From: a virus
IMG/VR virus record: IMGVR_UViG_3300032241_000811
Coordinates: 45,581 to 109,580 of that record
Reading direction: 5' to 3' (one strand)
DNA length: 64,000 nt
Positions 1-33,905 of this stretch are shown here, piece after piece. The stretch's first letter is position 1. Each line of letters starts with the position of its first letter. The translations under genes and the position numbers were made by a program. The notes under the pieces are model-generated. The model was given only the letters and a program-made list of their open reading frames with translations, was not told where the DNA came from and searched no databases.

Positions 1-797
1 TCAGCAATCGTGACATATTCCAGGCTTCCATAATCATCGCTCATATTTTTCACTGATACGTTGAAAGCTAGAAGCAAACAAATAGCTAACGGATCAAAAA
101 CTGCGATAATAATTATTATAACAAAACGGATGGCTTTGTCAACTACTTTCGTATCATCAGAGCCATAAATTAGTTCTGCAACATATTTGATAGGTCCAAC
201 TTCTGCTTCAACCTTTTTATTTTCAGATTCAAGCTTGATCTTTTCAACTTTGAGGCTGGATAGTGTTTCAACTTCCTTTTGCTTTTGATCTATAAGTGCC
301 TTGCGGTTTGCCTTTTGCTGTTCATTGATTGTTATGGAAGTTGTTGCACGCCCCTTTTCAATCAGCTTATTTACTGAGTTATCAATGACTGCAATCTGCT
401 TGTCTATATCATCCACAACACCTTGTTGGATTGAAATCTTTCCATCTACAATCTGAATCTGTTCAGATACGCCTGTGTTGACGGCTAACTGTTGATCAAT
501 ATGTGCGCGGGATAGAAATCCAAATATGCCCATGCTGGTGATAAGCATCAACACAATGATTGCAGAGAAAAGATAAACGCGAGTCAGTAGAGGCGCAATC
601 TTCCAGTTGTTATACAACCAAGAGACAGCGACAAGTTTACCTGTCTCTAATGCTGTGCCCATGATCAGAATCGACCAGAATGCTCCTGCAAACAGCGTTG
701 TCAAACCCACAACAGAATAATATGCTGCAACACCAGAAATGGTAATGCCGGATAGAAATGTAAGTATAGGAAGTAGTTTATTTGTGGTCTGTTTCAT
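1..797 (-). CDS. Multi-pass membrane protein with central coiled coil (partial, runs off window start)
   Basis: Not in ORF track; ATG at 797 reads MKQTTNKLLPILTFLSGITISGVAAYYSVVG... with hydrophobic N-terminal helices, a Q/K/E-rich coiled coil and a hydrophobic C-terminal segment; CATAAATA late-promoter variant at 803-810. Confidence 0.75.
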   Translation of the reverse strand, partial: MKQTTNKLLPILTFLSGITISGVAAYYSVVGLTTLFAGAFWSILIMGTALETGKLVAVSWLYNNWKIAPLLTRVYLFSAIIVLMLITSMGIFGFLSRAHIDQQLAVNTGVSEQIQIVDGKISIQQGVVDDIDKQIAVIDNSVNKLIEKGRATTSITINEQQKANRKALIDQKQKEVETLSSLKVEKIKLESENKKVEAEVGPIKYVAELIYGSDDTKVVDKAIRFVIIIIIAVFDPLAICLLLAFNVSVKNMSDDYGSLEYVTIA

Positions 798-805
798 AGA
801 CCTAT

Positions 806-3391: not shown

Positions 3392-3394
3392 TAT

Positions 3395-3727
3395 TTACCT
3401 TGGTAGAATCAGTTTGTTACTGTTTTGTGGAAGAACTAAACCACCAAATAGGGACTTATACTGGTTCAGAAACTCCGGGATGGGGTTCATTATACAGACA
3501 ATATGGCTGTTGTCAATAGTAAAGTCCTTGTCGTCAGAAAATTCTGCCCAAGGCAAGAAACCAATATTGGGTGTCTTGGGATCAGCCTTTGACACACCAG
3601 CATAGACGACACGAATCGGCTGCCGAATGGTAGTTGTCCTATCGCTCTTAGCCACAACTTCGGCTAAGAGTTCATCACGATTGGACATCTTGATAAGCTT
3701 GATCTTGTTTGTTTCTGTAGTCATCAT
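3395..3727 (-). CDS. Conserved T4-like hypothetical protein (possible Sm-like fold)
   Basis: 110 aa, tightly packed before gp43, beta-rich pattern. Confidence 0.6.
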   Translation of the reverse strand: MMTTETNKIKLIKMSNRDELLAEVVAKSDRTTTIRQPIRVVYAGVSKADPKTPNIGFLPWAEFSDDKDFTIDNSHIVCIMNPIPEFLNQYKSLFGGLVLPQNSNKLILPR

Positions 3728-3733
3728 ATCACC

Positions 3734-3919
3734 TCAAACATCTAACTGGAGAAGCCAATCAAATACCCCGACAGTCATCCACTTCTCTGGAATGTAAGTC
3801 AAACGGTGCCCGCTCTCAGACTTATAGACATACTTATTGTCATAGTCTATGACCTTGACGATCTTCTCCCACTTGCCGTCATATTCGCGCTGCTTGAACT
3901 GAGTTTCGAGGATTTTCAT
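3734..3919 (-). CDS. Hypothetical protein
   Basis: 61 aa, AGGAG SD upstream. Confidence 0.6.
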   Translation of the reverse strand: MKILETQFKQREYDGKWEKIVKVIDYDNKYVYKSESGHRLTYIPEKWMTVGVFDWLLQLDV

Positions 3920-3928
3920 TTTTATCTC

Positions 3929-4159
3929 CTAGTTATTGAATGCGTTTGGTGTTTTCAGTTTCTCGGCGGTTGTGACAGTCACATTACCATTCTCATTATT
4001 GAGTAGAAACAATGGTGTCAACCCTGCGTTTTTATATTCGTCTGCCATCTTGATGATCTTTTGCAGGTTGCTGCCTTTTTCAGGACCAAGAATATCAAGC
4101 CCTTCTTGAATCATCTGTTGTGAAATCACTATCAGATTATCTTCTTCACCAGAAATCAC
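3929..4159 (-). CDS. Hypothetical protein
   Basis: 76 aa in packed early cluster. Confidence 0.55.
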   Translation of the reverse strand: MISGEEDNLIVISQQMIQEGLDILGPEKGSNLQKIIKMADEYKNAGLTPLFLLNNENGNVTVTTAEKLKTPNAFNN

Positions 4160-4439
4160 GATCTACCTCTTTTTCTTCTGCTATCTTTTCGTTTACTAGC
4201 TTGGTAATACATTCATCACATATAGGGCCCAACTCATATCTGTCAGGAGAAGCATTCAACTCATACTTTTTCATATCAGCTACTCTTGAACCATAGTAGC
4301 CTTGAATGTAGTGCTTGCCCTCTGATAGATATACATCTGCTGCACAACCATAAAACTGGTCTGTATTGTAGCTGCCAGGAAATACTTCCTGTGTATAAGT
4401 TTCACCACAAGTCTTGCATATGATACGAGGTGTGATCAT
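4146..4439 (-). CDS. Hypothetical protein with CxxC pairs (possible zinc binding)
   Basis: CKTC and CDEC motifs; ATGA overlap with upstream gene. Confidence 0.55.
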   Translation of the reverse strand: MITPRIICKTCGETYTQEVFPGSYNTDQFYGCAADVYLSEGKHYIQGYYGSRVADMKKYELNASPDRYELGPICDECITKLVNEKIAEEKEVDRDFW

Positions 4440-4882
4440 TTTCTCTTTTCAAACTCATCAATGTATTGCGTCAATGCTGTCTTGACACCCAGGCCAATCA
4501 AAGAATCCCTCACATCAATAGGCAAGTCAAGAGTGAGAGTCAACGAGCCATCATCGTTCTCAACAGTTGATACAATCAGATCATCCGGTTCTGAAACAGG
4601 ATTATACATCTCCTCAAAGATGTGCTTCTTGTTGAACCAATACTCACCCTTTGGTCCCTTGATAAGATAGTCACCATTCATTGCGGTCATATGCCCTTCT
4701 AGTGTGATGATCGTGAGAGCAGACATATCCAGAGGATCAATAGGGTTGATGCGATGCACAGCCTTGTCTTCATAGATTGCTCTATGAACCCAATCAGGAA
4801 TGTTACCTTGATTATCTATCTCCAAGGTATCTATCTGCCAAGCATCCACAGGGATGGGCTTCTTGATGTATTTACCTACCAT
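4436..4882 (-). CDS. Small phage protein of the KKP..EA / TLEG / GD.LI.G..GE family (PGDYG-like)
   Basis: KYIKKPIPVDAWQ, ITLEGHMTAMNGDYLIKGPKGEYW motifs. Confidence 0.6.
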   Translation of the reverse strand: MVGKYIKKPIPVDAWQIDTLEIDNQGNIPDWVHRAIYEDKAVHRINPIDPLDMSALTIITLEGHMTAMNGDYLIKGPKGEYWFNKKHIFEEMYNPVSEPDDLIVSTVENDDGSLTLTLDLPIDVRDSLIGLGVKTALTQYIDEFEKRK

Positions 4883-4894
4883 GATTGTCCTTTA

Positions 4895-5158
4895 TTACAT
4901 CTGAGACTTGTCGCCCTGAGCCATGCCAGAAAGAATGTCCTTAGGGGCCGCAGGAATGCACTGATAGTAAACTGTGCCGTTATTCGTTCCAATAGAGTTC
5001 TGTTCTTTACCAGCAATCTGATCACCATAGTATTTGCACTTCTTTTCAGTGCTATCATCTGGCGTGTTTGGAAAATACAACTTGTTATTGACTGTACCGT
5101 TTTGCAGAATTGTAGTGACAACTAAAATCCAAATCATAATCATATACCTTTCATACAA
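4895..5158 (-). CDS. Small exported/membrane-anchored protein
   Basis: Hydrophobic N-terminus, two Cys. Confidence 0.5.
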   Translation of the reverse strand: MYERYMIMIWILVVTTILQNGTVNNKLYFPNTPDDSTEKKCKYYGDQIAGKEQNSIGTNNGTVYYQCIPAAPKDILSGMAQGDKSQM

Positions 5159-5360
5159 GTAGTTTGAGTTTGGGAGATAAGCGACTCAGTTGAAGAAGTG
5201 CTTCTTCCTTTTGATCGCGCATAAGAAGTTCTTGAATGTGGTCCAAGGAATCAGTCCACTTTTCATTTATCTTATATCCTCGGCTTTCCAGTTCATCAAT
5301 AAGTTCATTATCTGAAAATTCATCCAGATCAACCTTAACCTCTGCTGATACATGAGCCAT
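5151..5360 (-). CDS. Hypothetical early protein
   Basis: 69 aa directly downstream of promoter at 5398-5426. Confidence 0.6.
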   Translation of the reverse strand: MAHVSAEVKVDLDEFSDNELIDELESRGYKINEKWTDSLDHIQELLMRDQKEEALLQLSRLSPKLKLLV

Positions 5361-5397
5361 GGTGACTTCTTTTCTCCATTCAAGTTATTAATATGAC

Positions 5398-5426
5398 ACT
5401 ATAGCAAAAGCTTGATGGTAAGTCAA
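5398..5426 (-). promoter_or_regulatory. Sigma70-type promoter TTGACT-N17-TATAGT
   Basis: Exact 17-bp spacer; overlaps inverted repeat AAAGCTTGA/TCAAGCTTT. Confidence 0.75.
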
Positions 5427-5434
5427 GCTTTATT

Positions 5435-5584
5435 TTATTGCCCTCTACCAGATGGTCTTCTGGAAGGCTTCCTCATAGCTGCACTGGAAGGCTTTTTTGG
5501 TGTTTCCAGTTTGGGCTTTCTGACCTTGCTAAGACGAGCAGCGGCTTCAGAAATGTAATCACGAATGGATTTATTATTAGGCAT
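5435..5584 (-). CDS. Small basic protein, 49 aa (MPNNKSIRDYISEAAARLSKVRKPK...)
   Basis: Below ORF-track cutoff; AGGAGA SD upstream, fills the intergenic gap. Confidence 0.6.
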   Translation of the reverse strand: MPNNKSIRDYISEAAARLSKVRKPKLETPKKPSSAAMRKPSRRPSGRGQ

Positions 5585-5596
5585 TGAGTATCTCCT

Positions 5597-6484
5597 TTAT
5601 GCTATCAACGATTCTATCTTGTCTTGCAAGTCTTGTACACCAGTGAACTTATGCCCAATGAACTTGCATTTCAACTTGTCATAACTGCCGTAGAAAAAGC
5701 ATGTTATGTCAGGGTCTTTACTAAATGACATGAATGTTTTGTTTGGGTTCATCAGGTTCTCTCTGGTATGTGTAAAGCAGAATGGTCCTGAGTCTCGCCC
5801 AATAATCACATCACAGAATGTGGATATGTATCCAATCTCATTCAAATCGGTTCTATTCAGCTTATTGATTTCAGTTGTGGATATGATGTTATTCTGCTTG
5901 TGTTCAAACCGCTTTGTCACGATAAACATCTTGTCTTGATGCTTCTCAGCGATGAACCTTATCATTTCAGACATATCACTATTGAACTCTGGTATCTGCT
6001 TACTCATACCTGGACCGTTAGATATTAGAATCTTTTTTCGCTTTTCAATGCGATCAAACTCTTTTGCATTGTCAATGGCATAATAAGAATAGTCAGTAGT
6101 TGGCAGCCAGAACTCATCTTGCGGCTTGGGCATCAGATTAAGATGAAACATATTGTTCAGCAGTCTTATGATTTCGCAGTAGAACTTGTAATAGAAGTTC
6201 CATGTAACTTCTGCTTGATTGAATACCTTTAAGTAAGTTCCCAGCCAAGTATTGACAAGCACTGCATCAGGCCCATAAAGTATTGTTGCATGATCTGATA
6301 TAGCACTGGTGTTGAATGGACCCTGTGGAATATTCAAGTCTCTGACAACCCAATATCCATTCAGATGTGCATAAGAAAACTCAGAATTTGGTAACTGGCT
6401 CATCAAGTCACGCACCAATGGCTTGGTGTAATGCAAATCACCATTATGATAGTGATTGTAGAATATGATCTTCTGCCCCATCAT
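5597..6484 (-). CDS. Putative glycosyltransferase (GT9-like GT-B fold)
   Basis: N-terminal HNGD and C-terminal VIIGRDSGP resemble GT9 motifs; in sugar island. Confidence 0.5.
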   Translation of the reverse strand: MMGQKIIFYNHYHNGDLHYTKPLVRDLMSQLPNSEFSYAHLNGYWVVRDLNIPQGPFNTSAISDHATILYGPDAVLVNTWLGTYLKVFNQAEVTWNFYYKFYCEIIRLLNNMFHLNLMPKPQDEFWLPTTDYSYYAIDNAKEFDRIEKRKKILISNGPGMSKQIPEFNSDMSEMIRFIAEKHQDKMFIVTKRFEHKQNNIISTTEINKLNRTDLNEIGYISTFCDVIIGRDSGPFCFTHTRENLMNPNKTFMSFSKDPDITCFFYGSYDKLKCKFIGHKFTGVQDLQDKIESLIA

Positions 6485-6873: not shown

Positions 6874-8039
6874 AAAATCTCACCAAGCATGTCCATATCC
6901 GCATTATGAACAAACTGGTTATTACCTATATATACACCATTTTCATGTAGGATGTCAACATTAAAATTGCCATTCTTATCTGATTCTATCTTGTAACCAG
7001 ATTCTTTCAGATAAGGCTGCCTCAAAAGGTTTCCGCCAACAATCGGTCTGTACTCAATGGAGTTTTCATTCAGAGTCTTTATCAAGTCTTGCTTTATCTC
7101 CTTGCTGCGGCAGATCAATGGAAAGCAGAACGAACTGTTATTGGGTGTGTTGTTGACTGGATAGAATAAGTCTTGACGCCCCTCAACTATATTATAGAAC
7201 ACTTCATGGTTATCTCTGCGAGTTTTTATAAAGCAATCAAGCTTCTTCAACTGTGATAACCCAAGCACAGCAGCAAGTTCTGTATTGCGGAAGTTATATC
7301 CGTCAAGCACAAACAAGAACTGTTTTTCAATGTCAGGATATTTTCTGTTATAAAAATGAGGAGCCAAGGCGTTGCGTGACATACCATGTGAACGCATCAT
7401 ACGCATTGCATTATATAACTCGGTGTCATTGGTTGTAATCATACCACCTTCAATGGTTGACATATGATGCCCAAAGTAGAAAGAGAAAGTTGCGCCAGTG
7501 CTTCTTGAACCAACCAAATCTCCATGATGATCTACGCAGCCGTGTGATTCACAAACATCATCAATATAGATAGCATTGGGCAGAATCTTCTTGAATAGAT
7601 GCACTGGTGCTGGAATGCCCAATAGATGTGTGACAAACACAGCCTTGATGTCAGTATGCTTCTCAGAAATGTATTTGAGATTGTGCAGATCAAAAGAATA
7701 GTTATGCAGATCAATGTCACAAAATATAGGCTGCAACCCCAACTGTATGATAGGGTTGATGTTCGTCACCCAGGTGCAAGCAGGAACAACAACCTTGTCA
7801 CCCTTGTTGAGGCGCTTGGTTGCTATCAATGCAGCAATCAGCAAAAAGTTTGCGGTGCTACCAGAAGATACAAACAAAGAGTGTTTGCCGCCCAACCACC
7901 AAGACCATTCGCGTTCAAATTCTTCAACTTTCTTGCCCTGTGTGAACTTGTCTGTTGTCAAAACAAACTTTGCTAGTTTCAGCCTGTCCATGAATGACAA
8001 GCTGTTCTTTTGCAGGGGCCAATCAAACTCTGATTTCAT
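6861..8039 (-). CDS. DegT/DnrJ-family PLP enzyme, His-type (ColD/RfbH-like sugar 3-dehydratase)
   Basis: VSSGSTAN, DDVCESHG, FSFYFGHHMSTIEGG with His at the usual Schiff-base Lys position. Confidence 0.8.
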   Translation of the reverse strand: MKSEFDWPLQKNSLSFMDRLKLAKFVLTTDKFTQGKKVEEFEREWSWWLGGKHSLFVSSGSTANFLLIAALIATKRLNKGDKVVVPACTWVTNINPIIQLGLQPIFCDIDLHNYSFDLHNLKYISEKHTDIKAVFVTHLLGIPAPVHLFKKILPNAIYIDDVCESHGCVDHHGDLVGSRSTGATFSFYFGHHMSTIEGGMITTNDTELYNAMRMMRSHGMSRNALAPHFYNRKYPDIEKQFLFVLDGYNFRNTELAAVLGLSQLKKLDCFIKTRRDNHEVFYNIVEGRQDLFYPVNNTPNNSSFCFPLICRSKEIKQDLIKTLNENSIEYRPIVGGNLLRQPYLKESGYKIESDKNGNFNVDILHENGVYIGNNQFVHNADMDMLGEILWSM

Positions 8040-8970
8040 TTGTATCTCTGTTGTTCAAATACCAGTCTATTGTCATTCTCAGACCTTGACGCAGATCAAC
8101 TTTTGGTTTCCATCCAAGAGCATCCATCTTTGATGTGTCTAATGCTCTGCGTGGTGTGCCATTTGGTTTTGATGTATCCCAAACAATCTGACCTTGATAG
8201 CCAAAGATGTCTGCTACAGTTTCGGCAAGTTCCTTGATCGTCACTTCATGGTTTGGTCCAATGTTGATAGGACCAGGGTCATCATAGTTGTTCATCAAGA
8301 AGATGCAAGCATCAGCAAGGTCATCACTATATAGAAACTCTCTGGTTGGTGTGCCATCTCCAAAACAGGTTATTGTCTGATAGTTATTTTCCTTTGCAGC
8401 AATGAAGCGATTGATGAATGAAGGAATCACATGGCACTTCTCTGGATCAAAGTTATCGTGAATGCCATATAGATTATTTGGCATGACTGAGACTGTCTTG
8501 AAGCCATACTGCTCTGTATATTTCTGGCACATTGTCAGACCAATGATCTTTGACAGCGCATAGCCTATGTTAGTAGGTTCCATTGGACCTGTGAGCAGGT
8601 CTGTTTCCTTGATTGGAACAGGAGCAAACTTGGGGTAGATGCAAGCTGAACCCAAGAATAATAGCTTCTTGGCTCCTGATACATATGCTGAATCAATCAC
8701 ATTTGTCTGTATAAGCAGATTGTCTCTGATGTATTCTGCTGGGTGCTTTTGATTATGCCCAATGCCACCAACCTTTGCTGCTGCTAGAAACACATAGTCA
8801 GGCTTCTCTGCTCTGAAAAGTTCAAATGTTTCTTGCTGATTGCGAAAGTCGCATCTTTGACGCCCAACACCTACGATGTTTGTATAGCCTTGCTGTCTCA
8901 GTTGTCGGTCAATAGCAGAACCAACAAGACCATTAGCCCCTGCTATCAAAATCTTCTCATTACTGTCCAT
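8023..8970 (-). CDS. fcl: GDP-L-fucose synthase / ColC-like epimerase-reductase
   Basis: [38 protein letters not shown]. Confidence 0.92.
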
Positions 8971-9976
8971 AGAGACACATCTCCTTTACAAGGTCTTTGA
9001 ATGAATACTGTGGCTTCCAACCAAGTGCTTTACGCGCCTTTGTGGAATCACCCAATAGCGTTTCAACTTCTGATGGTCTGAAGTATCTTTCATTGATGCG
9101 AATACGAACTTCACCAGTCTGATCAACACCAACTTCATTCAATCCTTCACCCTGCCATGTGATATTCATGCCAAAATATGGTGCAGCTTCATTGACGAAA
9201 TCCCTGACTGAATACTGCTCACCAGTAGCTATGACATAATCATCTGGCTCTGGTTGTTGCAGCATCAGCCACATTGCTTCAACAAAGTCTTTTGCATGAC
9301 CCCAATCTCGCTTTGCATTGAGATTACCAAGTTCCAAGACTTTTTGATAACCAGAACTGATGCGAGACAGCCCCTTGACAATCTTGCGTGTCACGAATGT
9401 TTCACCGCGTCTTGGTGATTCGTGATTGAATAGAATGCCTGATGAGCAGTGCATACCATATGCTTCACGATAGTTCTTTACAATCCAGAAGCCATAAATC
9501 TTAGCCACACCATATGGCGATCTCGGATAGAACGGTGTCTTTTCTGTCTGTGGCGTTTCTTGCACCAGCCCATAGAGTTCAGATGTTGAAGCCTGATAGA
9601 TACGAACCTGCTTCTCCAGGCCCAATAGCCTCACAGCTTCCAAAACACGCAGCGTTCCCAAAGCATCTACTTGACCAGTATACTCTGGAATCTCAAATGA
9701 TACTTTGACATGGGACTGTGCGCCCAGATTGTAAATCTCTGTGGGTTGTATATCCTTGATGATACGAATCAGGCTTGAACCATCAGTCAAGTCACCATAA
9801 TGCAGTTTCAGCTTATGATAGATATGGTCGATGCGATCTGTATTGATCAGAGAAGCACGGCGCACAATGCCATGCACTTCATATCCCTTTTCAAGCAACA
9901 ACTCAGCCAAGAATGAACCGTCTTGCCCGGTGATGCCTGTTATCAGTGCTACATTTCTGGGTCTTATCGCTGTCAT
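8960..9976 (-). CDS. gmd: GDP-mannose 4,6-dehydratase
   Basis: [43 protein letters not shown]. Confidence 0.97.
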
Positions 9977-21827: not shown

Positions 21828-22499
21828 TCAGTTTAGATTAGGTATTGTATCACATCTGCCCGGGCCTGTAAAGACTTTTAAGCATTGCTTTATGTCTCCA
21901 CCAAGCATTTCTATCGTTCCTTGATTGAAAAACTCATAGTTCACTGGTTGCCCAATCCAAGCCCATTCGGAATAATGGACATGAGGGTACAATCTTGCCA
22001 TTGCGCTATCTTCATGCTCATCTGCAAGTTCATCTGAAGTGTTCTCAGCAAGCGCAGTTGAATACCATTCTGGATCAGCACCTCTGGTTACACGAACCAC
22101 AAAGCCGCCCATATTCTTGATTGCTTCAATTTCATTTGGAAAACGCACATCAGCAATGACTACATTGTTATACATTCCAATCTTGCGTTCAAGGGAATAT
22201 ATCCAGATGTTGGGGTGAAGCCCATCGCGCATGGCCTCAGTTCCCATGAGTTGCAGGGCCAGGCGCGGTGTAAAGTCTCTGCCAAGCTTATCTGACCACC
22301 ATTCGTCTTTGGTCTCTCTAAACTCTCGGCTCTCTGCTGTATCGCCTTCTAGAAGGTTCCTCTGCCATCCGAAGATAGCAGAGATTGCGTCCTTGAGTGA
22401 ATCAGCAAAAGATAGCTTGGTAAAGCCATGATTCTTGACAAGCAGATCAGCAAAGGTTCCTTTACCACTGTTGATAAAACCTAATATACCAATGATCAT
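21828..22499 (-). CDS. 1: Deoxynucleoside monophosphate kinase (gp1-like)
   Basis: GFINSGKGT, SFADSLK, PRLALQLMGTE, DVRFPNE. Confidence 0.93.
   Translation of the reverse strand: MIIGILGFINSGKGTFADLLVKNHGFTKLSFADSLKDAISAIFGWQRNLLEGDTAESREFRETKDEWWSDKLGRDFTPRLALQLMGTEAMRDGLHPNIWIYSLERKIGMYNNVVIADVRFPNEIEAIKNMGGFVVRVTRGADPEWYSTALAENTSDELADEHEDSAMARLYPHVHYSEWAWIGQPVNYEFFNQGTIEMLGGDIKQCLKVFTGPGRCDTIPNLN
21844..21872 (-). promoter_or_regulatory. Sigma70-type promoter TTTACA-N17-TACAAT (gp45)
   Basis: 17-bp spacer containing GCCCGGGC; within 3' end of dNMP kinase. Confidence 0.55.
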
Positions 22500-22501
22500 G
22501 A

Positions 22502-23404
22502 TCAGAGATTTCCAGTGTGATTGGCAATAGAAGGTAGATTACCAGTAAAGGCAAATGTACCAATGTGTTGTGTCTTCATCCATGGGCAAAGCCAAATCTG
22601 AAAGCCGATCTTTCGTGCATACTGACAGAACATATAATCTTCTGACAGATACCGATGTGATGCAGTCTTTTCCGCTTCAAGAAGATTGGCAAAGTCTTGC
22701 TTGACATTTTCACCAGCAGCAGCACGAGTCATCAGGCGATACACATCATCAAATGTATAGCCATTGTCAATGACAGTCTCAAAGTATGCATGAATATAGC
22801 GAGAGCCGTCAAAGTTTGCTTGCCCAACATGGTCTGGCTTGTAGTTCAGCTTAGGATATGCTTCCCGGAATTTTTCAAACACCTGGCGCTTGACCATCAT
22901 GAAACCAGTACCGATTTCCATGACTTCAAGTGGCTCAGTAACCTTGAACTGTTTGGTTCCAGGAACTGGATTGAATACATAGTCACCAACAAGCCCATCA
23001 AGTTCTCCTGGTGAGATGGCAGGGTTGCGCACCATTGCTGTAGCGATGTTACGCCAGTTGATTGACTTCTTTGGATATGGTGCACCAATGATGTCCTTGT
23101 CAAGGGCGATCAAGGCTAATACATCGTTGGGGTCAAAATGAATGTCTGAGTCGATAAAGAGAAGATGAGTAAACCCAGAGCGGAGAAACTCATCAACAAG
23201 ATAGTTTCGTGCGCGGGTAATCAGGGATTCATTGAAAAGAAACGAGAAGCGGATATCAATACCGTTCTGTATGCACATGCCTTGCAAGTCAAGGCACGAT
23301 TTCATATAGAGGCCTGCATTCTGCCCACCATATTGTGGTGTACAGACAAACAGTTTTGCCTTTCTTAGGTCTTCAAGGGATATTTTTAGTTCCATATTAT
23401 TCAC
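22502..23404 (-). CDS. GT-A fold glycosyltransferase-like protein
   Basis: ESLITRARN, FIDSDI, IGTGFM, LSEDYMFC. Confidence 0.8.
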   Translation of the reverse strand: MNNMELKISLEDLRKAKLFVCTPQYGGQNAGLYMKSCLDLQGMCIQNGIDIRFSFLFNESLITRARNYLVDEFLRSGFTHLLFIDSDIHFDPNDVLALIALDKDIIGAPYPKKSINWRNIATAMVRNPAISPGELDGLVGDYVFNPVPGTKQFKVTEPLEVMEIGTGFMMVKRQVFEKFREAYPKLNYKPDHVGQANFDGSRYIHAYFETVIDNGYTFDDVYRLMTRAAAGENVKQDFANLLEAEKTASHRYLSEDYMFCQYARKIGFQIWLCPWMKTQHIGTFAFTGNLPSIANHTGNL

Positions 23405-25089: not shown

Positions 25090-25118
25090 ATTATAGCATA
25101 GTTTATCTGGAATGTCAA
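25090..25118 (-). promoter_or_regulatory. Consensus sigma70 promoter TTGACA-N17-TATAAT
   Basis: Perfect hexamers, 17-bp spacer. Confidence 0.85.
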
Positions 25119-27418
25119 GCAGCAATTAGCTTGATAAACCGTTGTAATAACACGCGATTTACAGTCTTTTTTTCACAATGTTCCAAGAACATCTTGGCCA
25201 TCTTGTTTTTAGTCATGGTGGAATTGATTTCCAGTGGCTTGTTTACAATGTTCAAAGTCTTGGAATTGATTACATAGTTTTCATCATAGCCAGCACTGGT
25301 AACGGCAAGAAAGCCATTGTCAAGCCAAAGTTTCCGTTGCTTTTCAAAAAAAGCATCATCATAGTTCATATTGTTCCGATAAGCATCATTAAAAACAAAC
25401 TTGAAGTTTTTAGAACTTTCAAGGAAGAAACCAACAAGATTGGTACCAGTCCGATCCTTGAGGATTTTCAGCAAAGTCGGAGTCATCACACGATGGCTAA
25501 TTGTAATTGGAATATCTTCCTTGTAGTATGACGAATGACTTATATATGCTTTTTGATGCCCAATTTCATATGTCTTTTTAGTCACATCATCGGTGATGTG
25601 GAACTTGCGGTACTTTACGTCAGGGTTTGTATTAGATTTGTGGCCAAAAACATTTTGGTTGCCGTCACTGTTACCGTCAGTCAAGAAGATGGTATTGACA
25701 ATCTGGACTTTGCTACGCGCCTGGAAAGCCTTGATAACAAGTTCTGAAGCAAGAATAGCTTCATTCAAAGGCGTGGAGCCCATGCTTTCAGTATGCCAAA
25801 TCTGGCCGCTGGCAAAACACCAGATGTAATACATAGCCTTGTTGAAGTCGGCAAGGTTCATGCGAGAGGACAATAAATTGCGCAAGCGGAAAGTGGACAT
25901 TTCAATATCGCCATCTTTATGCGACCAGCACGGACCTTCCTTGTCATAATTGTCATGTGTAGTGCCATTCTTGAAAGAATAGACTTCAAAAGGAATGTTC
26001 ACACGTTTACAGAACCAGACAAGCGAGAATAGTTGCTTGATGGTGTTTTTCAGACAAGTATCCATTGAACCAGACCAGTCAATAATCATGACAAAGCCAT
26101 GAGACTTGCCAGAGGCAATCATTGCATTGCGCTTGAACAAGTCATCATTATAGCGGTATGAATGAAGCTTGTTGGTGTCAATCACACCAGTTTTGGAAAC
26201 AGAGGTGCGTGAGTATTCGTCAGCAGCCTTGCGCATCTCAAATTCCTTGACCATAAAGGAAATGGCTGCATTCTCAGAAGACTTGAAGTTATTCAATTCA
26301 GTCCGCACGGCATCAAACCATGCAGGCTTGCTTTGATACTTCATGCGGAAGTCACCGTCAATAGCAGCTAGGACTTGCTTATAATCAACAAGGATTGTAC
26401 CAAGATTTGCATGGGGCAAAGTTGCGTAGATGTACTCAGTTTCTGGATTTGCAATCAGGTCAGCCTGCTTTTCCTGCCAAGCTTGTTCAGTCTTGGGAGC
26501 ATCGGGTTCAGGCTTTGCAAAAGTGCCTTCGCCGCCGTCATGATCTCCAGCCTGCTTCTTATCAGAGGAATCATCTTCGCCGGCATCTTCAGGCTTTTCA
26601 GGCTTTTCACCTTCATCACCGGCGCCAGGCGAGTCATCTTCGCCAGCATCATCGGAAGCATCAGCATCGGATGATTCCTCGCCGTCAGAGTCATCATCAT
26701 TTTCCTCTTCTTCCTGATCATCAAAGTCATAATCGGAATCGGAAGAGGACGAATCAGTCTCATATTCCTCATCATCATCATCGGATGAAAAGTCATCAAG
26801 GTTTTGACTGAGGGATTGCTGTTCCTGTTTTTGTTCTTTAGCGTAGGCGTAAATTTCTTCGGTCAGCGCAAGGACTTCATCAAAGGTCTCAGCCGTTTCA
26901 ATACGCTTGACAAAGGCGCGTTCCACAGGGGTGTTGAAATTGACGCCAGACATTGCGCCAGCCTTGAAATGAATATTGACGCGGTCGATGAAAGTCAAAC
27001 CGTTCACATCGGTGTTGACAGTGCCTAAGAAGTTCTTTTCAAGGAGTTCATTATAACCCTTGATATAGTTGCGGCGTGCGCCAGGGAAGCGGCGCTTTTG
27101 GCGCTTGTCAATACGGGCATCTTCAATAATATTGAGGAAGCCCTTGAGGGATTGAATATTGCCGTTTAGGCGCTTGTTCATATCAATCAGCTTTGCTGGA
27201 AAGTCAGCGGGTGTGTCAAGAGCATGGCCAACTTCATGGACGATCATCATATCGTAAAGGTCGCTGGACATTTCACGCCAGACAGGTAGAATAAGCACTC
27301 GCTTTGCAACATCAAAGGAAGCGGTCTTGGCACCGTGCTGGTGCTGCACTATAATGTTTTCAGTGGCTAGCAGCTTGGCTAGCAGGGACTTTTGGTTGTT
27401 ATTGGTTACTTGTTCCAT
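25115..27418 (-). CDS. HEXXH metallopeptidase-like domain + acidic linker + vWA domain (CobT-like)
   Basis: HEVGH, NIIEDARI, D/E-rich linker, DWSGS MIDAS, STP, LTDG; start likely ATG 27418. Confidence 0.88.
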   Translation of the reverse strand: MEQVTNNNQKSLLAKLLATENIIVQHQHGAKTASFDVAKRVLILPVWREMSSDLYDMMIVHEVGHALDTPADFPAKLIDMNKRLNGNIQSLKGFLNIIEDARIDKRQKRRFPGARRNYIKGYNELLEKNFLGTVNTDVNGLTFIDRVNIHFKAGAMSGVNFNTPVERAFVKRIETAETFDEVLALTEEIYAYAKEQKQEQQSLSQNLDDFSSDDDDEEYETDSSSSDSDYDFDDQEEEENDDDSDGEESSDADASDDAGEDDSPGAGDEGEKPEKPEDAGEDDSSDKKQAGDHDGGEGTFAKPEPDAPKTEQAWQEKQADLIANPETEYIYATLPHANLGTILVDYKQVLAAIDGDFRMKYQSKPAWFDAVRTELNNFKSSENAAISFMVKEFEMRKAADEYSRTSVSKTGVIDTNKLHSYRYNDDLFKRNAMIASGKSHGFVMIIDWSGSMDTCLKNTIKQLFSLVWFCKRVNIPFEVYSFKNGTTHDNYDKEGPCWSHKDGDIEMSTFRLRNLLSSRMNLADFNKAMYYIWCFASGQIWHTESMGSTPLNEAILASELVIKAFQARSKVQIVNTIFLTDGNSDGNQNVFGHKSNTNPDVKYRKFHITDDVTKKTYEIGHQKAYISHSSYYKEDIPITISHRVMTPTLLKILKDRTGTNLVGFFLESSKNFKFVFNDAYRNNMNYDDAFFEKQRKLWLDNGFLAVTSAGYDENYVINSKTLNIVNKPLEINSTMTKNKMAKMFLEHCEKKTVNRVLLQRFIKLIAA

Positions 27419-27444
27419 ATGACCGTTCTCTTGATTTATGCTTA

Positions 27445-27473
27445 CTTTTAGCACGGCTGGACATGCTTTGCAA
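27445..27473 (-). promoter_or_regulatory. Sigma70-type promoter TTGCAA-N17-TAAAAG
   Basis: 17-bp spacer, TGC before -10 as in other promoters here. Confidence 0.55.
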
Positions 27474-27477
27474 TAGA

Positions 27478-27506
27478 TAAAAGCGCATAACAGGTATGCG
27501 CTTTTT
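27478..27506. terminator. Bidirectional-looking hairpin AAAAGCGCATA/TATGCGCTTTT
   Basis: 11-bp perfect inverted repeat with T-runs. Confidence 0.6.
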
Positions 27507-27686: not shown

Positions 27687-29312
27687 TCACGGCTTGTAAT
27701 ATATATATATCGGCTCATATTTCAGTTTCATTTTTTTACCCCCTGCTGATGTAACTTCAACACAGTTTTTCATCATACCTTCTGTGACAGAAACTTCTTC
27801 TGTTTCTTCACCAAATACAGTGTTTTTTGTAACAATCTCTTTTTCACCTGTTTCCACAAATCTGTTACCACCGGGCATAGGTGCAAGAGTCATTTTTATT
27901 GTCGTGATGTATTTCATTCCGAGTTCTTTTAGTATATTGCAAGAATCTTCTTCCAAAGAAAGAAGTTTTCCGTCAAGTGCAATGTCAGCAATATTCCAAG
28001 CCAAGTATCTATCGTTTCGTAAATACTCAACTGCGGTTTCCAAAGTGGGTCTTAGAAATCCATCTCGCCAAGAATCATAAGTTGAAAACTTATGGCACGA
28101 TTGTTCTTTGTCGTCAGAATAAACTTCCTTATTGAAATAAGGCGGAGATGTGAAAACAAAATCTAGTTTTCCTTTATATTTTTGAAATTCAGGTTGGGTG
28201 CGCATCATTTCAGAACCACATTGGTATATTTCATATATATGTGATTTAGGAAATAAACTATTGCTTTCTCTTATATTTTGATTGAAAAAATCTGCTACTT
28301 CGTGATACTTTGTTCTTCCTGTAGTAGTATTATGATCAGTATTAGGATCAGTACCAATATAATGTATTTGTTTTTTATCGTTCATAGCCATTGCACCAAT
28401 GAGACGGCCTGCCCAGCCTGCGGAAGGATCCCAAATAATAGCGGTGTCTTGATTCTTGATTGGATTTATAAACTTTTCATATATAAATCTAGCTGTAAGA
28501 GGTGGATATTGCACAGCATATTGGCAGAACGATACTCTGAAAGCTTTCAAGCCAATAGGGAATACTTTTTGCCCCAACTTGAACCAGCGAATGCTATACT
28601 TGTTTGTCTTTGTCTTATCCACATTGACCTTGTGCTTTGCAGGCACATCAAAGTCAGCAGTTACAAAGAGGTTCTGTCTCTTAGCAAGTGCTTGATTATA
28701 GCCAGTATAGTTACCATCTTCTTTGACAGGGCAAAGCCAATAACTGTAGCCATAGTTCTCTTCAATGTTGTTCTCGGTGAACCACAAGAAAAAGTTCTCT
28801 GGTGTCGTTACTGTATAGTTTATATTGCCGGCTTGCAGTATCTCACCGACAGAAATAGGTGAGGAATAATGATAGAACGAATCACGTTTGAAGTGTCGCG
28901 TTGCATAAGTGACAAAGGTATCAAGCAGTGAATCATCTGCAAAGTAGGTATAGATAGACCTTGCTTCACCCTTTGATGAATAAGAGATTCCTGTTTTCAT
29001 CATAGTTGGAAACCAAGAGTTCACTGCATTACCAACAATAGATGTATTGCGCACAACATCCTTTTGAACCTCAAGTTCATGAACAGGAAAGGTTGTCATC
29101 TCAGTGAAGTTGTCAATGATGTCCTTCTTGCTATAGCCTACTCTGGGCGGCAAGCCTTTGTTGTCCCAAAGGTCTACCACCTTCTTGCGCATATCTATGA
29201 CCCATTGACGGAAATCTGATTGACTCATCCACAGCAATTCGTCAAATGTCTTGTTTACCTCGCTGTTGATCAGTTCATCATTTCTACCATAGAACCAGTT
29301 CTTCTCAGTCAT
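27687..29312 (-). CDS. Amino (N6A/N4C) DNA methyltransferase-like protein
   Basis: WDPSAGWAGRL SAM-binding motif followed by FTSPPYF catalytic motif. Confidence 0.82.
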   Translation of the reverse strand: MTEKNWFYGRNDELINSEVNKTFDELLWMSQSDFRQWVIDMRKKVVDLWDNKGLPPRVGYSKKDIIDNFTEMTTFPVHELEVQKDVVRNTSIVGNAVNSWFPTMMKTGISYSSKGEARSIYTYFADDSLLDTFVTYATRHFKRDSFYHYSSPISVGEILQAGNINYTVTTPENFFLWFTENNIEENYGYSYWLCPVKEDGNYTGYNQALAKRQNLFVTADFDVPAKHKVNVDKTKTNKYSIRWFKLGQKVFPIGLKAFRVSFCQYAVQYPPLTARFIYEKFINPIKNQDTAIIWDPSAGWAGRLIGAMAMNDKKQIHYIGTDPNTDHNTTTGRTKYHEVADFFNQNIRESNSLFPKSHIYEIYQCGSEMMRTQPEFQKYKGKLDFVFTSPPYFNKEVYSDDKEQSCHKFSTYDSWRDGFLRPTLETAVEYLRNDRYLAWNIADIALDGKLLSLEEDSCNILKELGMKYITTIKMTLAPMPGGNRFVETGEKEIVTKNTVFGEETEEVSVTEGMMKNCVEVTSAGGKKMKLKYEPIYIYYKP

Positions 29313-30306
29313 TTGCTATATTTCTTTCCATAAGATTTTCAAATATGTCATAGTATTCATCTGGTGTTTTTACCACACTCAGAAACTTTGTTTTGGCTTC
29401 CAAAAGCCTTTGATTGAAGTTATCACTATACGATATATAGGAAACTTTGTCAACAAAATCTTCATATGAATTGACTCTTTGCCATTCTGAGGAAACAAAT
29501 ATATTGTTGGTGTCGTAGTTTTGCCACACCAAAGGTATCATATCACAAGCTATTGCTTCAATGTAGCGTGATGTTGTTGCTTCTGGATTCATCCAGTTGA
29601 AACATAGTGTGCATTTGGATGCTTTCAGTGTGGGTATGATGTTCTTCATCTTTCCCCATTTTTGATTTCTTTCAAAGCCATAGAAGCGCCCAATGAAATA
29701 AGACTTGATGTTTTCGTTCTTGTGTATCTGTTTCAGTATTGTGTGGCGAACATCACCAGATGATTTGCCATCTATTGTCTTTCGCTTATCAGAACCCCAA
29801 TAGGCAAAGTCGTATGTCTTTTCGGTATTCTCATATAGCGTCTGTATATTCTTGATGAAGTGGTATTTCATTCCGTGAACATTGCCAAAGTCTATTTCAT
29901 CAATGACACGATAATCTATATCAAGACCAGGAAATACTTTTGTCTGATACAATTCAATGTCATCGCGCCGATCAGATCGTAGAATGATAACTCTCTTGCC
30001 GTTGATATACGGCTTTATTTGTTCAAGCTGGCTGTTTGACCGCTTCAAGTCAAGTGTATGAATGGCACCAGGAATGTGATAAGTAAACTCTGCTTCAGAT
30101 GGTATAACTATGATGTCTGCGTTTTTGATTGCTTCTATATTGCGAACGGGCTTCTGGTTGAATCCAAAGTTGTAATGGTAATACTCATGCTCAGTATGCT
30201 TCATGACATAACGAAGCATCAAGGCATAAAACGAATCCATTATGTGGTCAAGTGGTGTGACATAGTTATCACCAGAACGAAGCCTTGCAAAACAGATTTT
30301 CATCAT
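29305..30306 (-). CDS. GT-B fold protein resembling DNA beta-glucosyltransferase
   Basis: MKICFAR start, YDFAYWGS..R, TSRYIEAIACDMIPL; ATGA-coupled start at 30306. Confidence 0.55.
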   Translation of the reverse strand: MMKICFARLRSGDNYVTPLDHIMDSFYALMLRYVMKHTEHEYYHYNFGFNQKPVRNIEAIKNADIIVIPSEAEFTYHIPGAIHTLDLKRSNSQLEQIKPYINGKRVIILRSDRRDDIELYQTKVFPGLDIDYRVIDEIDFGNVHGMKYHFIKNIQTLYENTEKTYDFAYWGSDKRKTIDGKSSGDVRHTILKQIHKNENIKSYFIGRFYGFERNQKWGKMKNIIPTLKASKCTLCFNWMNPEATTSRYIEAIACDMIPLVWQNYDTNNIFVSSEWQRVNSYEDFVDKVSYISYSDNFNQRLLEAKTKFLSVVKTPDEYYDIFENLMERNIAND

Positions 30307-31094
30307 GCTCCTACATTCCAAAATAGACAAGTATCGCCAGACTTGCCGTAAATACTTTGATAATCTTTCATTATGTGCCAAGCCTTTGCATCATATGTGG
30401 GCGCAGAAGGAAACGGAGGCACATGTTCTTTTTTTACAGGCTTATCAAACTTGTAGGGAGACTTATGATAATACGCCCTACCTATATCTTCTTCTTTCAT
30501 TGTATGCCCTACAGAAACTACATGTACCATAGCCTTTGGAAATGCAAGCTGCAATGATCTTGTAAGTGTGCCTGATGAACCTACTGACCATACTTCTGTT
30601 GGTTCAATAGGCAATGATCTTGCAACTTTGATAAGACAACCAATAGCAGTATCATGTCTGACACCAATCGGCACTAACAGTTTGTTATCAGGGTCCTCTG
30701 CTACATAATCTCTTGCGCGTTTTTCAGTAACAGGAAGCATACCCATCTTGACCCAGCGCATATCTGCACCAAGTTCTATTGCTTTCTTCTGATATGGATG
30801 AAGCTTATCCATAGACCTTTCAGCCATGAATATGACAGCTTTCTTGCCATACTTGGAGCAGACATAGGGCAATGACATCTGTGCATAGCCGGTTGCTGGT
30901 GATGATCCATAAACGATTTCATTTTGCTTTGCATTGCGTATCAGATAATCAGCAGCGCGAGCCTTTGAACCTACTTCAAGCATATCATCACGAACAACAT
31001 GGATACCTTCGTGTTCAACAATAACAGGTGGGGGATTTGGGTCTTGCCAATCACCGATCAAATCTAGATAATAATCCGCTGTGTTGAAAAACAT
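30303..31094 (-). CDS. Fold-type II PLP-dependent enzyme
   Basis: VVRDD...GSKAR Schiff-base Lys, VGSSGTL phosphate loop, TYDAKAW, FWNVG. Confidence 0.8.
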   Translation of the reverse strand: MFFNTADYYLDLIGDWQDPNPPPVIVEHEGIHVVRDDMLEVGSKARAADYLIRNAKQNEIVYGSSPATGYAQMSLPYVCSKYGKKAVIFMAERSMDKLHPYQKKAIELGADMRWVKMGMLPVTEKRARDYVAEDPDNKLLVPIGVRHDTAIGCLIKVARSLPIEPTEVWSVGSSGTLTRSLQLAFPKAMVHVVSVGHTMKEEDIGRAYYHKSPYKFDKPVKKEHVPPFPSAPTYDAKAWHIMKDYQSIYGKSGDTCLFWNVGA

Positions 31095-31095
31095 A

Positions 31096-32811
31096 CTATG
31101 TTACTAACCTGCTGAAATTTTGAACCTTCTCAAAACGATATACACGATCAAACTTGTCTACAAGCTGATCGGTCTTGTGTGATATAATAAACGTATTTGT
31201 TCCGTCTGTCAAGTCTTTTATGATCTTGAGGAACTCATCTGTGCCATTTGCATCCAAGGAGCCATCAAGTATTTCATCAAGCAAAAGCAGATTGGTGTTT
31301 ACTGAGTTTTTGAGTTTTGCAATATGACGCCAAGTGAATAGCAAAGCAAGGTCAATCCTTGTTTTCTCGCCTTCGGAAAAGTTGGCATAGCTAAACTCAT
31401 CACGGTATCTGGACTTGATTACTTCCTCAAAGTTCTCATTCACATTGAAATTGACAAAGAACCCCATCTGCGACAGGTATTTGTTGACAACTTTGTTGAT
31501 GATCGGAATGTATTGCTTGATGATCTTTGTCTTGATGCCACCATCTTTGAGTAACTGTGTGGCCACATCAATCATTTGTTTGTTGAGCAGGAAGTTGTTC
31601 TTTGCTCTTTCCTTTGCTGCAATCTCATTCTCGGTTGTAGCCAGTTCTTTTTCGTTCTCTTGAATGAGTGTGTCTGAGTTCTTGATCTTGTCTATAGCAT
31701 CCTCAGTATCATTTATGGATGAAACCAAGTGCATCATCATGGACTTGTTCTTGCTGATTTCAGTATTGATATTCTGAATGCGCTTCACATACTTTTCTTT
31801 TTCGGTTATGCTGCTAAGTAGCGCATTGCTGTCAATCTCTTTAGCTTGTGCTTCTACACATTGCTTACTAATCTCTTCTGCAAGTTCAAGCACTCTCTTT
31901 GATTTGAAGTTTGCATCTATGGTTTGCTTGCATGTTGGGCATGTTTCTGAATGCTTGATGAAGTCTTTTTCTACATCAAGTCTCTTTGTATCTGCATCAA
32001 GAGTAGCAACATACTTTATCATCTGCTCATACCGTTTCTTGTCATCATCAAGGTTCAACACCTTGTTGACTAACTGTTCCTTTTCATCAATTATGATTTG
32101 CACAGCAGCAAGCAATGTCTTTTTTTGCTCATTCAGTGATGCAAGCTGTTCTTCAAGATCCTTGAGTTTGTCCTCATTGTTCTTGCGCAGGCTTGTCAAA
32201 GTCTTTTCAATGAACTTCTTCTTTTCTTCTCTTGAACCCAGTTCAATGCGGTTGCGCTCAATCAAGTCCTTGTTCTCTTGAAACCTCTGCTTCATCAATA
32301 GAGACATCACTGAAAAGATTTGAATGTCAAGCAAATCTTCAATAATGGTTCTTCTGTCAGCAGGCGACAATTGCATGAAAGGCACAAATGATGCAGAACC
32401 CAATATGACGATCTGTGAGAATGACTTCATGTTCATCTTGAGGATATATTTCTCAAGGTATTCCTGATAGTCTTTTGAAGCTGAGTCCTGGTTCAATAAC
32501 TCATCATCAACATAGATTTCAAATATGTTGGGCTTGATGCCACGAATGATCTTGTATTGCTTGCCATGTGTTTCAAACTCAATCTCAACAACACAGTCTT
32601 TGTTGTTCACACTATTGACTAATGCAGGCTTATTGATCTTGCGAAACGGCTTGCCAAACAAAACAAAAGTCAGAGCATCAAGTATGGTTGACTTACCATG
32701 CCCGTTGGCTCCAACTATAAATGATGTTTGTGCTTTGTTTAGTTCTATCTCGGTAAAAGCATTACCGGTAGATAAAAAATTCTTCCATCTAATAACTTTG
32801 AGTACAATCAT
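31096..32811 (-). CDS. 46: Recombination endonuclease ATPase subunit gp46 (Rad50/SbcC-like)
   Basis: GANGHGKST, CPTC hook, FSEGE, LLLDE. Confidence 0.97.
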   Translation of the reverse strand: MIVLKVIRWKNFLSTGNAFTEIELNKAQTSFIVGANGHGKSTILDALTFVLFGKPFRKINKPALVNSVNNKDCVVEIEFETHGKQYKIIRGIKPNIFEIYVDDELLNQDSASKDYQEYLEKYILKMNMKSFSQIVILGSASFVPFMQLSPADRRTIIEDLLDIQIFSVMSLLMKQRFQENKDLIERNRIELGSREEKKKFIEKTLTSLRKNNEDKLKDLEEQLASLNEQKKTLLAAVQIIIDEKEQLVNKVLNLDDDKKRYEQMIKYVATLDADTKRLDVEKDFIKHSETCPTCKQTIDANFKSKRVLELAEEISKQCVEAQAKEIDSNALLSSITEKEKYVKRIQNINTEISKNKSMMMHLVSSINDTEDAIDKIKNSDTLIQENEKELATTENEIAAKERAKNNFLLNKQMIDVATQLLKDGGIKTKIIKQYIPIINKVVNKYLSQMGFFVNFNVNENFEEVIKSRYRDEFSYANFSEGEKTRIDLALLFTWRHIAKLKNSVNTNLLLLDEILDGSLDANGTDEFLKIIKDLTDGTNTFIISHKTDQLVDKFDRVYRFEKVQNFSRLVT

Positions 32812-32825
32812 TACAAACCTTTGTA

Positions 32826-33905
32826 TTAGTCTATCTGTTCAAGTGACAATGCTTCCTGATAGACTTCTCGCATGTAAATTTTCATCTTATCACTTTCCAC
32901 AGGCAATGTCAAGCCCTCAATATAGGAATCAAGTATTGTCACCGTGTCTTGTGCTTCATCCACAAACTCTTCTGTTTTGGTATCAGTAAACAATGAAGCA
33001 TCTTCAACAACAGATATATCTGCTGGTGACTCTTTATATAGCTTGTCCATGAGCATGTCAAAGGCAAATGGGTTTGACTTGTTGACACACACAATCTTCA
33101 CATAGCAATCTTTATACTTGGAATAATCAGTCTCGTTTATTGTTTCTATGATGTCAGTATTCTTGACATCATCATAAGCAAGCATATGAAAAATACGGAA
33201 AGGATTGCGGACAAAATCGATTGTATTAGATACGGTATCGTATATTGAGAAGCCACGAGAATCGTTATGGTCTGACCAAACATGCTCGCCAAAAGCACCC
33301 ACATAATGAATGTTATCACGGACAGACCTATGGTGATAATGCCCTGTAAAAACATAGTCAAACCTCTGATACATTTTGTGATTAGAGCCATGATCTGATA
33401 ATAATCCTTTCTGCATTTCAAAACCATCCAACTCAAGATGAGCGCAGCATATTCTTGCTTTTGACTGCTCCATCGCTTCATAAGACGCAAGTTCGTTTGC
33501 TTTGGTGATCCAAGGCAATAGAAAGAACTGGCAGCCATCTATCTCAATATGCTGTGGTGTAGAATAGACATTGATGTTCTTATAGCGATTGCCTACAAAC
33601 TCTTCAAGCGCATTTACCTTGTAAGTGTCTTTATAGTATTCATCATGATTGCCTGCGATGATGTGCATCATGCAAAGATCATTCAAAGGCTCAAGGAAGT
33701 CTTCACGCAGCCTAGCATGAGTCAAGACATTGATATACTTTCTGCGGTCAACAAGGTCGCCCAGATGTATGATGTGCTTGATGCCATGCTCACGTATATA
33801 AGGTAGGAAAAACTCATTCATTGACTTCTTGAAGTAATCAAGAAATACGGGGCTGTCATTTCTGACGCCCCAATGAGTATCAGCGATTATTGCAATCTTT
33901 GTCAT
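32826..33905 (-). CDS. 47: Recombination endonuclease nuclease subunit gp47 (Mre11/SbcD-like)
   Basis: DTHWG, LGDLVDRRK, GNHD, GHYH. Confidence 0.97.
   Translation of the reverse strand: MTKIAIIADTHWGVRNDSPVFLDYFKKSMNEFFLPYIREHGIKHIIHLGDLVDRRKYINVLTHARLREDFLEPLNDLCMMHIIAGNHDEYYKDTYKVNALEEFVGNRYKNINVYSTPQHIEIDGCQFFLLPWITKANELASYEAMEQSKARICCAHLELDGFEMQKGLLSDHGSNHKMYQRFDYVFTGHYHHRSVRDNIHYVGAFGEHVWSDHNDSRGFSIYDTVSNTIDFVRNPFRIFHMLAYDDVKNTDIIETINETDYSKYKDCYVKIVCVNKSNPFAFDMLMDKLYKESPADISVVEDASLFTDTKTEEFVDEAQDTVTILDSYIEGLTLPVESDKMKIYMREVYQEALSLEQID

Follow-up and report, generated by a model that had tools for sequence, protein, structure and literature searches.

To our knowledge, every known route to hypermodified phage DNA starts from a pyrimidine carrying a hydroxymethyl or an oxidised methyl group, from a deazaguanine or, as found most recently, from carboxymethylcytosine. 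The present report deals with three overlapping genes, referred to as A, B and C, which occupy positions 27,687 to 31,094 of a 64,000-nucleotide stretch of DNA (the window). This stretch covers positions 45,581 to 109,580 of IMGVR_UViG_3300032241_000811, a 109.6-kb IMG/VR record of an uncultured aquatic T4-like phage which is estimated to be 63% complete. Gene A putatively encodes a pyridoxal phosphate (PLP) enzyme, gene B a predicted glycosyltransferase and gene C a protein with the fold of an SPPY-type amino-methyltransferase. With a probability of roughly 0.55 we consider their products to be parts of a modular, methyltransferase-led pathway which most likely attaches a group bigger than methyl to a base in the DNA of the phage itself.

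The closest described systems are the thymidine hypermodification clusters of phages M6 and ViI (PMC8989533, PMC5889632). M6 gp52 and ViI gp226 have been purified as PLP-containing decarboxylases whose substrate is glycine or serine on thymine in DNA (PMC8989533). Protein A falls into the same PLP family (phrog_7093) and is 25% identical to a gp52 counterpart. In addition, the M6 and ViI clusters follow the same logic as the loci described below, in that an installing enzyme is combined with tailoring enzymes which can be swapped for one another (a PLP enzyme, an acetyltransferase, an oxidoreductase), and multi-domain fusions of them are present in metagenomes. In contrast to the M6/ViI route, the deoxyuridine monophosphate hydroxymethylase, the 5-hydroxymethyldeoxyuridine (5-hmdU) DNA kinase and the amino-acid:DNA transferase aGPT-Pplase were not found here, the constant partner being the SPPY methyltransferase-fold enzyme. 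A precedent for a methyltransferase-type phage enzyme which adds a non-methyl group to DNA as a handle for hypermodification is CmoX of Synechococcus phage S-B43, which transfers a carboxymethyl group from carboxy-S-adenosylmethionine (carboxy-SAM) to C5 of cytosine (PMC12783734). Differing from C, CmoX is a C5-cytosine enzyme using carboxy-SAM; PMC12783734 shows no PLP enzyme, glycosyltransferase or dioxygenase as its partner.

Protein B shares the two-domain GT-B fold with T4 DNA beta-glucosyltransferase (BGT; PDB entries 1bgt, 1j39 and 1nzd) at an identity of only about 14%. Unlike the situation in T4, searches of this record and of complete relatives revealed no source for either 5-hydroxymethylcytosine or 5-hydroxymethyluracil, and the partners of B alternate between A plus C and a DruA-like protein. 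As to C, the known (D/N/S)PPY amino-methyltransferases comprise gamma-class/Eco57I-type N6-adenine DNA methylases as well as the Trm11/TrmN/Trm14 enzymes forming m2G (N2-methylguanosine) in tRNA. Compared to these, C possesses an additional N-terminal domain of 265 residues which is confined to viruses. Plain SPPY-type methylases need no PLP enzyme, dioxygenase or acetyltransferase as partner, whereas C is accompanied by or fused with such enzymes. The literature searched contains neither a description of a DNA modification system composed of a methyltransferase and a PLP enzyme (with or without an AspH-like protein) nor one of aminocarboxypropyl transfer to DNA.

In hundreds of T4-like phage contigs, the slot bounded by gp46 and a CobT-like 'peptidase' gene has gene C as its conserved core. 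C is present in this slot in all 80 C loci fetched, 19 of which contain A and 11 B. Partners were counted in the 62 loci offering at least 2.5 kb of upstream sequence: A was found in 18, an AspH-like dioxygenase in 32 and a GNAT acetyltransferase in 27, at least one of the three being present in 55 and none in the remaining seven. Anchored on A (55 loci with full flanks), the same comparison reveals C in 50 cases, AspH in 30 and B in ten. In the five remaining A loci C is not adjacent: two have it at a distance on the same contig, the rest being two fragments which are 9-16% complete and one contig that was not searched. Gene A, in other words, almost never occurs without C being encoded. Gene B behaves as an optional module with two alternative partners: of 54 loci with full flanks, 19 combine it with both A and C, 34 with a DruA-like gene in the absence of A and C, and one with neither.

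The initial annotation had regarded the trio as one cassette whose members would be expected to occur together in relatives. The counts replace this picture by a conserved core, C, by a gene A which depends on C, and by an optional add-on, B, which is found more often beside the DruA-like gene than with A or C and is the only one of the three that was detected, at the locus or by tblastn, in Pelagibacter phage HTVC008M. The more common partners of A and C are the AspH-like dioxygenase, GNAT and YunG, none of which is present at the locus of the phage studied here. Likewise, the suppliers proposed in that annotation found no support: the gp1-type deoxynucleoside monophosphate (dNMP) kinase is a syntenic gene present regardless of A, and nothing links the dUTPase or the nucleotide-sugar island to the cassette.

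A search of 1.8 billion representative proteins with a profile of A yielded 1411 relatives, many of them long and composed of several domains. Methyltransferase, AspH and PALP domains are combined in P0241 (1081 residues) and P0254 (1138 residues). The methyltransferase precedes PALP in P0243, P0244, P0255 and P0292 and follows it in P0298 and P0380, while P0353 unites PALP, ParB_N and a C-like methyltransferase. YunG is joined to PALP in several proteins, together with GNAT in P0282 and with AspH in P0249. The methyltransferase domains of these fusions are homologous to that of C (26-30% identity, E-values down to 2e-28) and match both PF01555 and Eco57I; their AspH domains are homologous to the AspH genes of the slot (33-38% identity), and the slot GNAT matches the N-terminus of P0282 at 36% identity. 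B was not seen in fusions among the relatives recovered with the A profile. Since the fused domains are homologous to the separate genes of the slot, they provide strong evidence for a common pathway of C, A, AspH, GNAT and YunG. Neighbourhoods and fusions together tie C, A and the tailoring enzymes to each other functionally.

The assignment of A to the PLP enzymes relies on its relatives. While A itself reaches no more than 17.6 bits with the Pfam family PALP (curated cut-off 35), the values of close relatives lie above the cut-off, amounting to 46.3 for Mae-JY30, 40.6 for gp1 of Erythrobacter phage R6L and 44-46 for the fusion proteins. Its closest relatives in cultured phages (41-43% identity) are the PALP part of R6L gp1, an 810-residue 'DNA modification methylase' in which an N6_N4_Mtase domain is combined with a PALP domain, and a gene adjoining ParB/methylase genes in a Microcystis phage. 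A tblastn search with A matched 64 phage records, including 51 from Pseudomonas and nine from Bordetella phages; the identity to the M6-like Pseudomonas phages and the Bordetella phages is about 25%. With Orf44 of the M6-like phage PAE1, BLASTP reports 25% identity over residues 71-263 (E 7e-13). This protein is the counterpart of M6 gp52, its gene being flanked by those of an aGPT-Pplase and a radical-SAM protein in the same placing. Lys44 of A resides in a VVRDD...GSKxR context resembling VKRED...SFSKIRG of the gp52 counterpart, and appears to be equivalent to K36 of gp52 (PMC8989533). These similarities place A in the PLP enzyme family whose members, in the two cases studied, remove the carboxyl group from amino acids linked to DNA bases. 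Against PDB sequences, A gave two weak and unrelated matches only (E 0.0066 and 0.062) and the A3 profile none; a search of NCBIfam returned nothing useful. A predicted complex of A and C received a score of 0.00 in a run without controls, which speaks neither for nor against binding.

For B, the score with the Pfam family Glyco_trans_1_2 (20.6 bits) lies below the curated cut-off as well. Its AlphaFold model (pLDDT 94) was submitted to Foldseek, which placed entries of T4 BGT on top (E 2.6e-9, TM-score 0.63), followed by T4 alpha-glucosyltransferase. BGT was, in addition, the only match in PDB sequence searches with B (E 0.015) and with the profile of its family (E 5e-4). R246 and E249 of B, both invariant in alignment A2, align with R269 and E272 of BGT, which bind the nucleotide sugar, and the YWGS segment aligns with YGGS of BGT in the S189/R191 region. 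A candidate counterpart of Asp100 of BGT lies within the invariant RSDRxD segment (R109-D114) following the strand formed by residues 104-109. According to the model, the structural relationship of B to T4 BGT extends over its full length. We would like to note that the mechanically called open reading frame of B (29305-30381, minus strand) opens within A, at a TTG located 25 codons further upstream, and that the ATG at 30306 (333 residues) or the next ATG suits the length of the homologs (325-336 residues).

Protein C scores 20.6 bits with N6_N4_Mtase (curated cut-off 26.7), and many of its homologs carry a precomputed PF01555 label. Its 1379 homologs are conserved from end to end. In an alignment of 34 sequences, residues D295, P296, S297, G299, W300, G302 and R303 of motif I (DPSxGWxGR) are invariant. 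Fold searches identify a class I methyltransferase, matches being mainly in the C-terminal domain with about 180 residues aligned; a search against PDB sequences gave no match. The N-terminal domain is strongly conserved and its Atlas neighbours are all viral. No known fold was matched by this domain in searches with whole C, which hit mainly the C-terminal domain, and no THUMP-like match was obtained, the domain having been neither folded nor searched alone. A relationship of the N-terminal domain to the DruA-like protein was considered and rejected (profile-profile probability 0.2).

Although the Pfam scores are weak, independent phrog, homology, fold and motif tests uphold the three enzyme labels of the initial annotation. 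Its likening of B to T4 BGT agrees with the GT-B fold now found, and its linking of A to the PLP enzymes of phage thymidine hypermodification with the homology to the gp52 counterpart. The positions which it gave for the three genes all proved correct, and the coupling it described can be read directly from the junctions (Table 1). The genes are arranged on the minus strand in the order late sigma factor gp55, gp47, gp46, A, B, C, CobT-like 'peptidase' and CobS. A single nucleotide separates the stop codon of gp46 from the start of A (TAG-t-ATG); A and B overlap in ATGA with GGAG just upstream; and B and C share eight nucleotides, ATGACTGA. A, B and C are translationally coupled to gp47-gp46, and a terminator-like hairpin, which a consensus terminator scan did not list, closes the run. 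The 'peptidase' gene downstream of C (25115-27454, minus strand) encodes a protein in which a long acidic low-complexity insert, rich in Asp, Glu and Ser, spans about residues 215-300.

Table 1. Features of the gene run around A, B and C, with coordinates in the window, and examples of regions with a DruA-like gene beside B, with coordinates in the named loci.
Feature	Coordinates	Strand	Support
gp47, SbcD-like recombination nuclease subunit, heads the coupled run	32826..33905	-	Metallophos 3.3e-11; phrog_100 4.9e-92
gp46, SbcC-like recombination nuclease subunit	31096..32811	-	phrog_77 7e-159
A, 263 residues, putative fold-type II (PALP) PLP enzyme of the M6 gp52 / ViI gp226 family	30303..31094	-	phrog_7093 1.3e-42
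Codon of Lys44 of A (GSKxR), presumed PLP Schiff-base lysine	30963..30965	-	invariant in alignment A3
B, 333 residues, predicted GT-B glycosyltransferase, with T4 DNA beta-glucosyltransferase as closest relative of solved structure	29305..30306	-	
C, 541 residues	27687..29312	-	
N-terminal domain of C, residues 1 to ~265, virus-only	28518..29312	-	many invariant residues, alignment A1
SPPY amino-methyltransferase-fold domain of C, residues ~266-541	27687..28517	-	
Motif I of C, D295-P-S-x-G-W-x-G-R303, SAM-binding loop	28404..28430	-	invariant, 34 sequences
Motif IV of C, S389-P-P-Y392	28137..28148	-	invariant within FTSPPY, 34 sequences
Terminator-like hairpin agcgcata-cctgt-tatgcgct with T-run, between C and the peptidase gene	~27479..27502	-	read from sequence
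Region with DruA-like gene beside B, example in L204	6983-8257		
Region with DruA-like gene beside B, example in L183	7027-8280		
Region with DruA-like gene beside B, example in L001 (HTVC008M)	8028-9711		

A nucleotide search with the 3.4-kb stretch found no match among cultured phage records. At this locus the nearest cultured relative is HTVC008M, in which gp46 is followed by B, a JmjC_2 cupin, the DruA-like protein and the peptidase, and in which neither A nor C was detected at the locus or by tblastn. The genes around B in HTVC008M were considered as possible homologs of A or C and rejected, as they are not homologous. The DruA-like protein found beside B comprises 404-464 residues, matches Pfam DruA with an E-value of 1e-20 and contains an invariant QPxGxNYxGGKLL segment. 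In HTVC008M, furthermore, 2OG-FeII_Oxy_5 paralogs number ten or more, and one lies between gp47 and gp46; none is present in our record or in the complete relative G001. The latter (174 kb, 100% complete) contains A, B and C in the same order. This order recurs in a second lineage, where C is a short form of 360 residues with 32-34% identity. The fullest version of the pathway seen is located outside the gp46 context (L139, positions 25-6405; IMGVR_UViG_3300020470_004276), where overlapping genes encode a C-like methyltransferase, an AspH-like protein, A, B, a 99-residue open reading frame, a PLOD-type glycosyltransferase (E 2.5e-32) and an HD protein.

The genes of the known routes were searched for in the record and in its relatives. 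A ThyA-type hydroxymethylase (Thymidylat_synt) has no match in this record, HTVC008M, G001 or G002, and in a further genome, G003, a sub-threshold match only (12 bits, E 0.0055). Tet_JBP gave no match in this record or in the complete relatives, in a search whose control matched nothing anywhere. An oxygenase of another kind may also supply a hydroxymethyl pyrimidine. The earlier statement that neither a hydroxymethylase nor a TET/JBP enzyme is visible in the window, accordingly, extends to the 109.6-kb record and to complete relatives, with the same proviso concerning the TET/JBP control. Relatives of the PAE1 aGPT-Pplase and 5-hmdU kinase were not found in single-sequence searches run without a positive control. 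Since none of these three functions was found, the known thymidine route does not seem to be the one used here. With these functions not found and the SPPY enzyme as the constant partner, it is probably a base other than thymine that is modified, and the origin of the side chain is probably not a free amino acid.

We therefore envisage the modular methyltransferase-led pathway as follows. Protein C would bind SAM and alkylate the exocyclic amino group of a base; instead of methyl, it may transfer the 3-amino-3-carboxypropyl arm of SAM. A would then decarboxylate or otherwise tailor the side chain on the polymer, and B would use a nucleotide sugar to glycosylate either this product or a different acceptor. 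The outcome would be DNA protected from host nucleases. The reason for considering the larger arm lies in the partners of C. A PLP enzyme needs a primary amine beside a carboxylate, and an N-acetyltransferase needs an amine. Since the PLP enzyme, the enzyme of amino-acid beta-hydroxylase type and the N-acetyltransferase all need an amino-acid-like handle, which methyl does not offer, C may transfer the aminocarboxypropyl arm. It is possible, with the odds against it, that C is a DNA aminocarboxypropyl transferase acting on an exocyclic nitrogen, that A decarboxylates the arm to aminopropyl on the polymer, and that B glycosylates the product. Equally tentative is our view of aminocarboxypropyl transfer followed by decarboxylation by A as the most economical chemistry. 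The AspH-like enzyme is a plausible source of the hydroxyl for B.

That DNA is the target we infer because the studied relatives of A act on it, because B resembles two T4 DNA glucosyltransferases, because the fusions contain ParB_N, N6_N4 and Eco57I-type parts, and because the genes are sited beside gp46/gp47. To this extent the evidence is consistent with the initial annotation in its general proposal of a base-modification pathway not yet described.

Several observations weigh against the proposed pathway. The transferred group, and whether DNA, RNA or protein receives it, are themselves inferred. The invariant core of C is identical in loci with and without A, and A is present in only 18 of the 62 C loci; as this core is the same in the absence of A, C may simply methylate. 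Since 34 of the 54 B loci have the DruA-like neighbour and neither A nor C, B is not tied to these genes and may have an acceptor other than their product. Genes of the AspH type were never seen in loci with A, B and C together, and none is present in this 63%-complete record; in G001 there is one, at a great distance from the cassette. Peptide deformylase and the JmjC_2 cupin of HTVC008M, as neighbours in the slot, would also suit a protein-directed activity. Finally, the searches for the aGPT-Pplase and kinase relatives, in the form described above, are a weakness of the argument.

In line with the last-mentioned neighbours, the pathway could be directed at tRNA or rRNA, or at a protein of the translation apparatus, C being similar to Trm11/TrmN or PrmC and the AspH-like and GT_PLOD-like enzymes acting as protein hydroxylases and glycosyltransferases. 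We consider this unlikely. Fusion proteins have indeed been named TrmN6 by JGI, protein modification involves known members of the AspH and PLOD-type glycosyltransferase families, and the deformylase and the cupin share the slot; yet it is DNA on which the studied relatives of A act, and the two best structural families of B are precisely the two DNA glucosyltransferases of T4. The fusions, moreover, carry ParB_N, parts of beta-class N6_N4 DNA methylases and Eco57I-type matches, and the N-terminal domain of C, which was not searched alone, gave no THUMP-like match.

Quite unlikely, too, is that C acts as an ordinary DNA N6-adenine or N4-cytosine methyltransferase protecting against restriction, with A (a PLP enzyme for small molecules) and B (serving another acceptor) being unrelated neighbours in the slot. 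Such a role would accord with the canonical motif I and the SPPY of C, with the PF01555 label of many homologs, and with a slot in which A and B are absent from most C loci, B occurs elsewhere without A and C, and plainly unrelated genes such as that of peptide deformylase are housed. It does not explain why A is almost never encountered without C, why A-type PALP and C-type methyltransferase domains have been fused repeatedly and in both orders, or why the AspH and GNAT genes of the slot are homologous to domains of those very fusions. Furthermore, the only studied relatives of A work on side chains bound to DNA.

A pre-replicative route, in which C and A modify a dNMP, the gp1-type kinase phosphorylates it and B glycosylates after incorporation, as in the T4 hydroxymethylcytosine route, is highly improbable: such a kinase is coupled to a GT-A-like gene about 4 kb downstream (pair at 21828-23404, minus strand; GT-A-like gene of 300 residues with a weak Anp1 match of 25 bits, 2 nucleotides upstream of the kinase and before gp45/gp44), and in another lineage the same pair (54% and 35% identity) directly follows A with C distant on the contig (L129-131 and L158; L129 7318-9058), but the kinase accompanies C loci with and without A in what looks like ordinary synteny by gp45/gp44, M6 gp52 and ViI gp226 act on polymeric DNA, the ParB_N fusions suggest action at the DNA level, and G002 has C and no gp1-type kinase of that kind.

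If the modular methyltransferase-led pathway is real, the SPPY methyltransferase-fold route would constitute a new entry point to hypermodification and would probably give rise to new modified bases. In the case of aminocarboxypropyl transfer, which we hold to be less likely than not, these would be a new class of hypermodified adenine, cytosine or guanine formed without a hydroxymethyl intermediate. Such a route would explain resistance of these phages to restriction or to sequencing chemistry and would offer new enzymes for DNA labelling. The family of C numbers over 1300 homologs in T4-like phages of aquatic origin, and its tailoring partners comprise a PLP enzyme, a dioxygenase and an acetyltransferase as well as glycosyltransferases.

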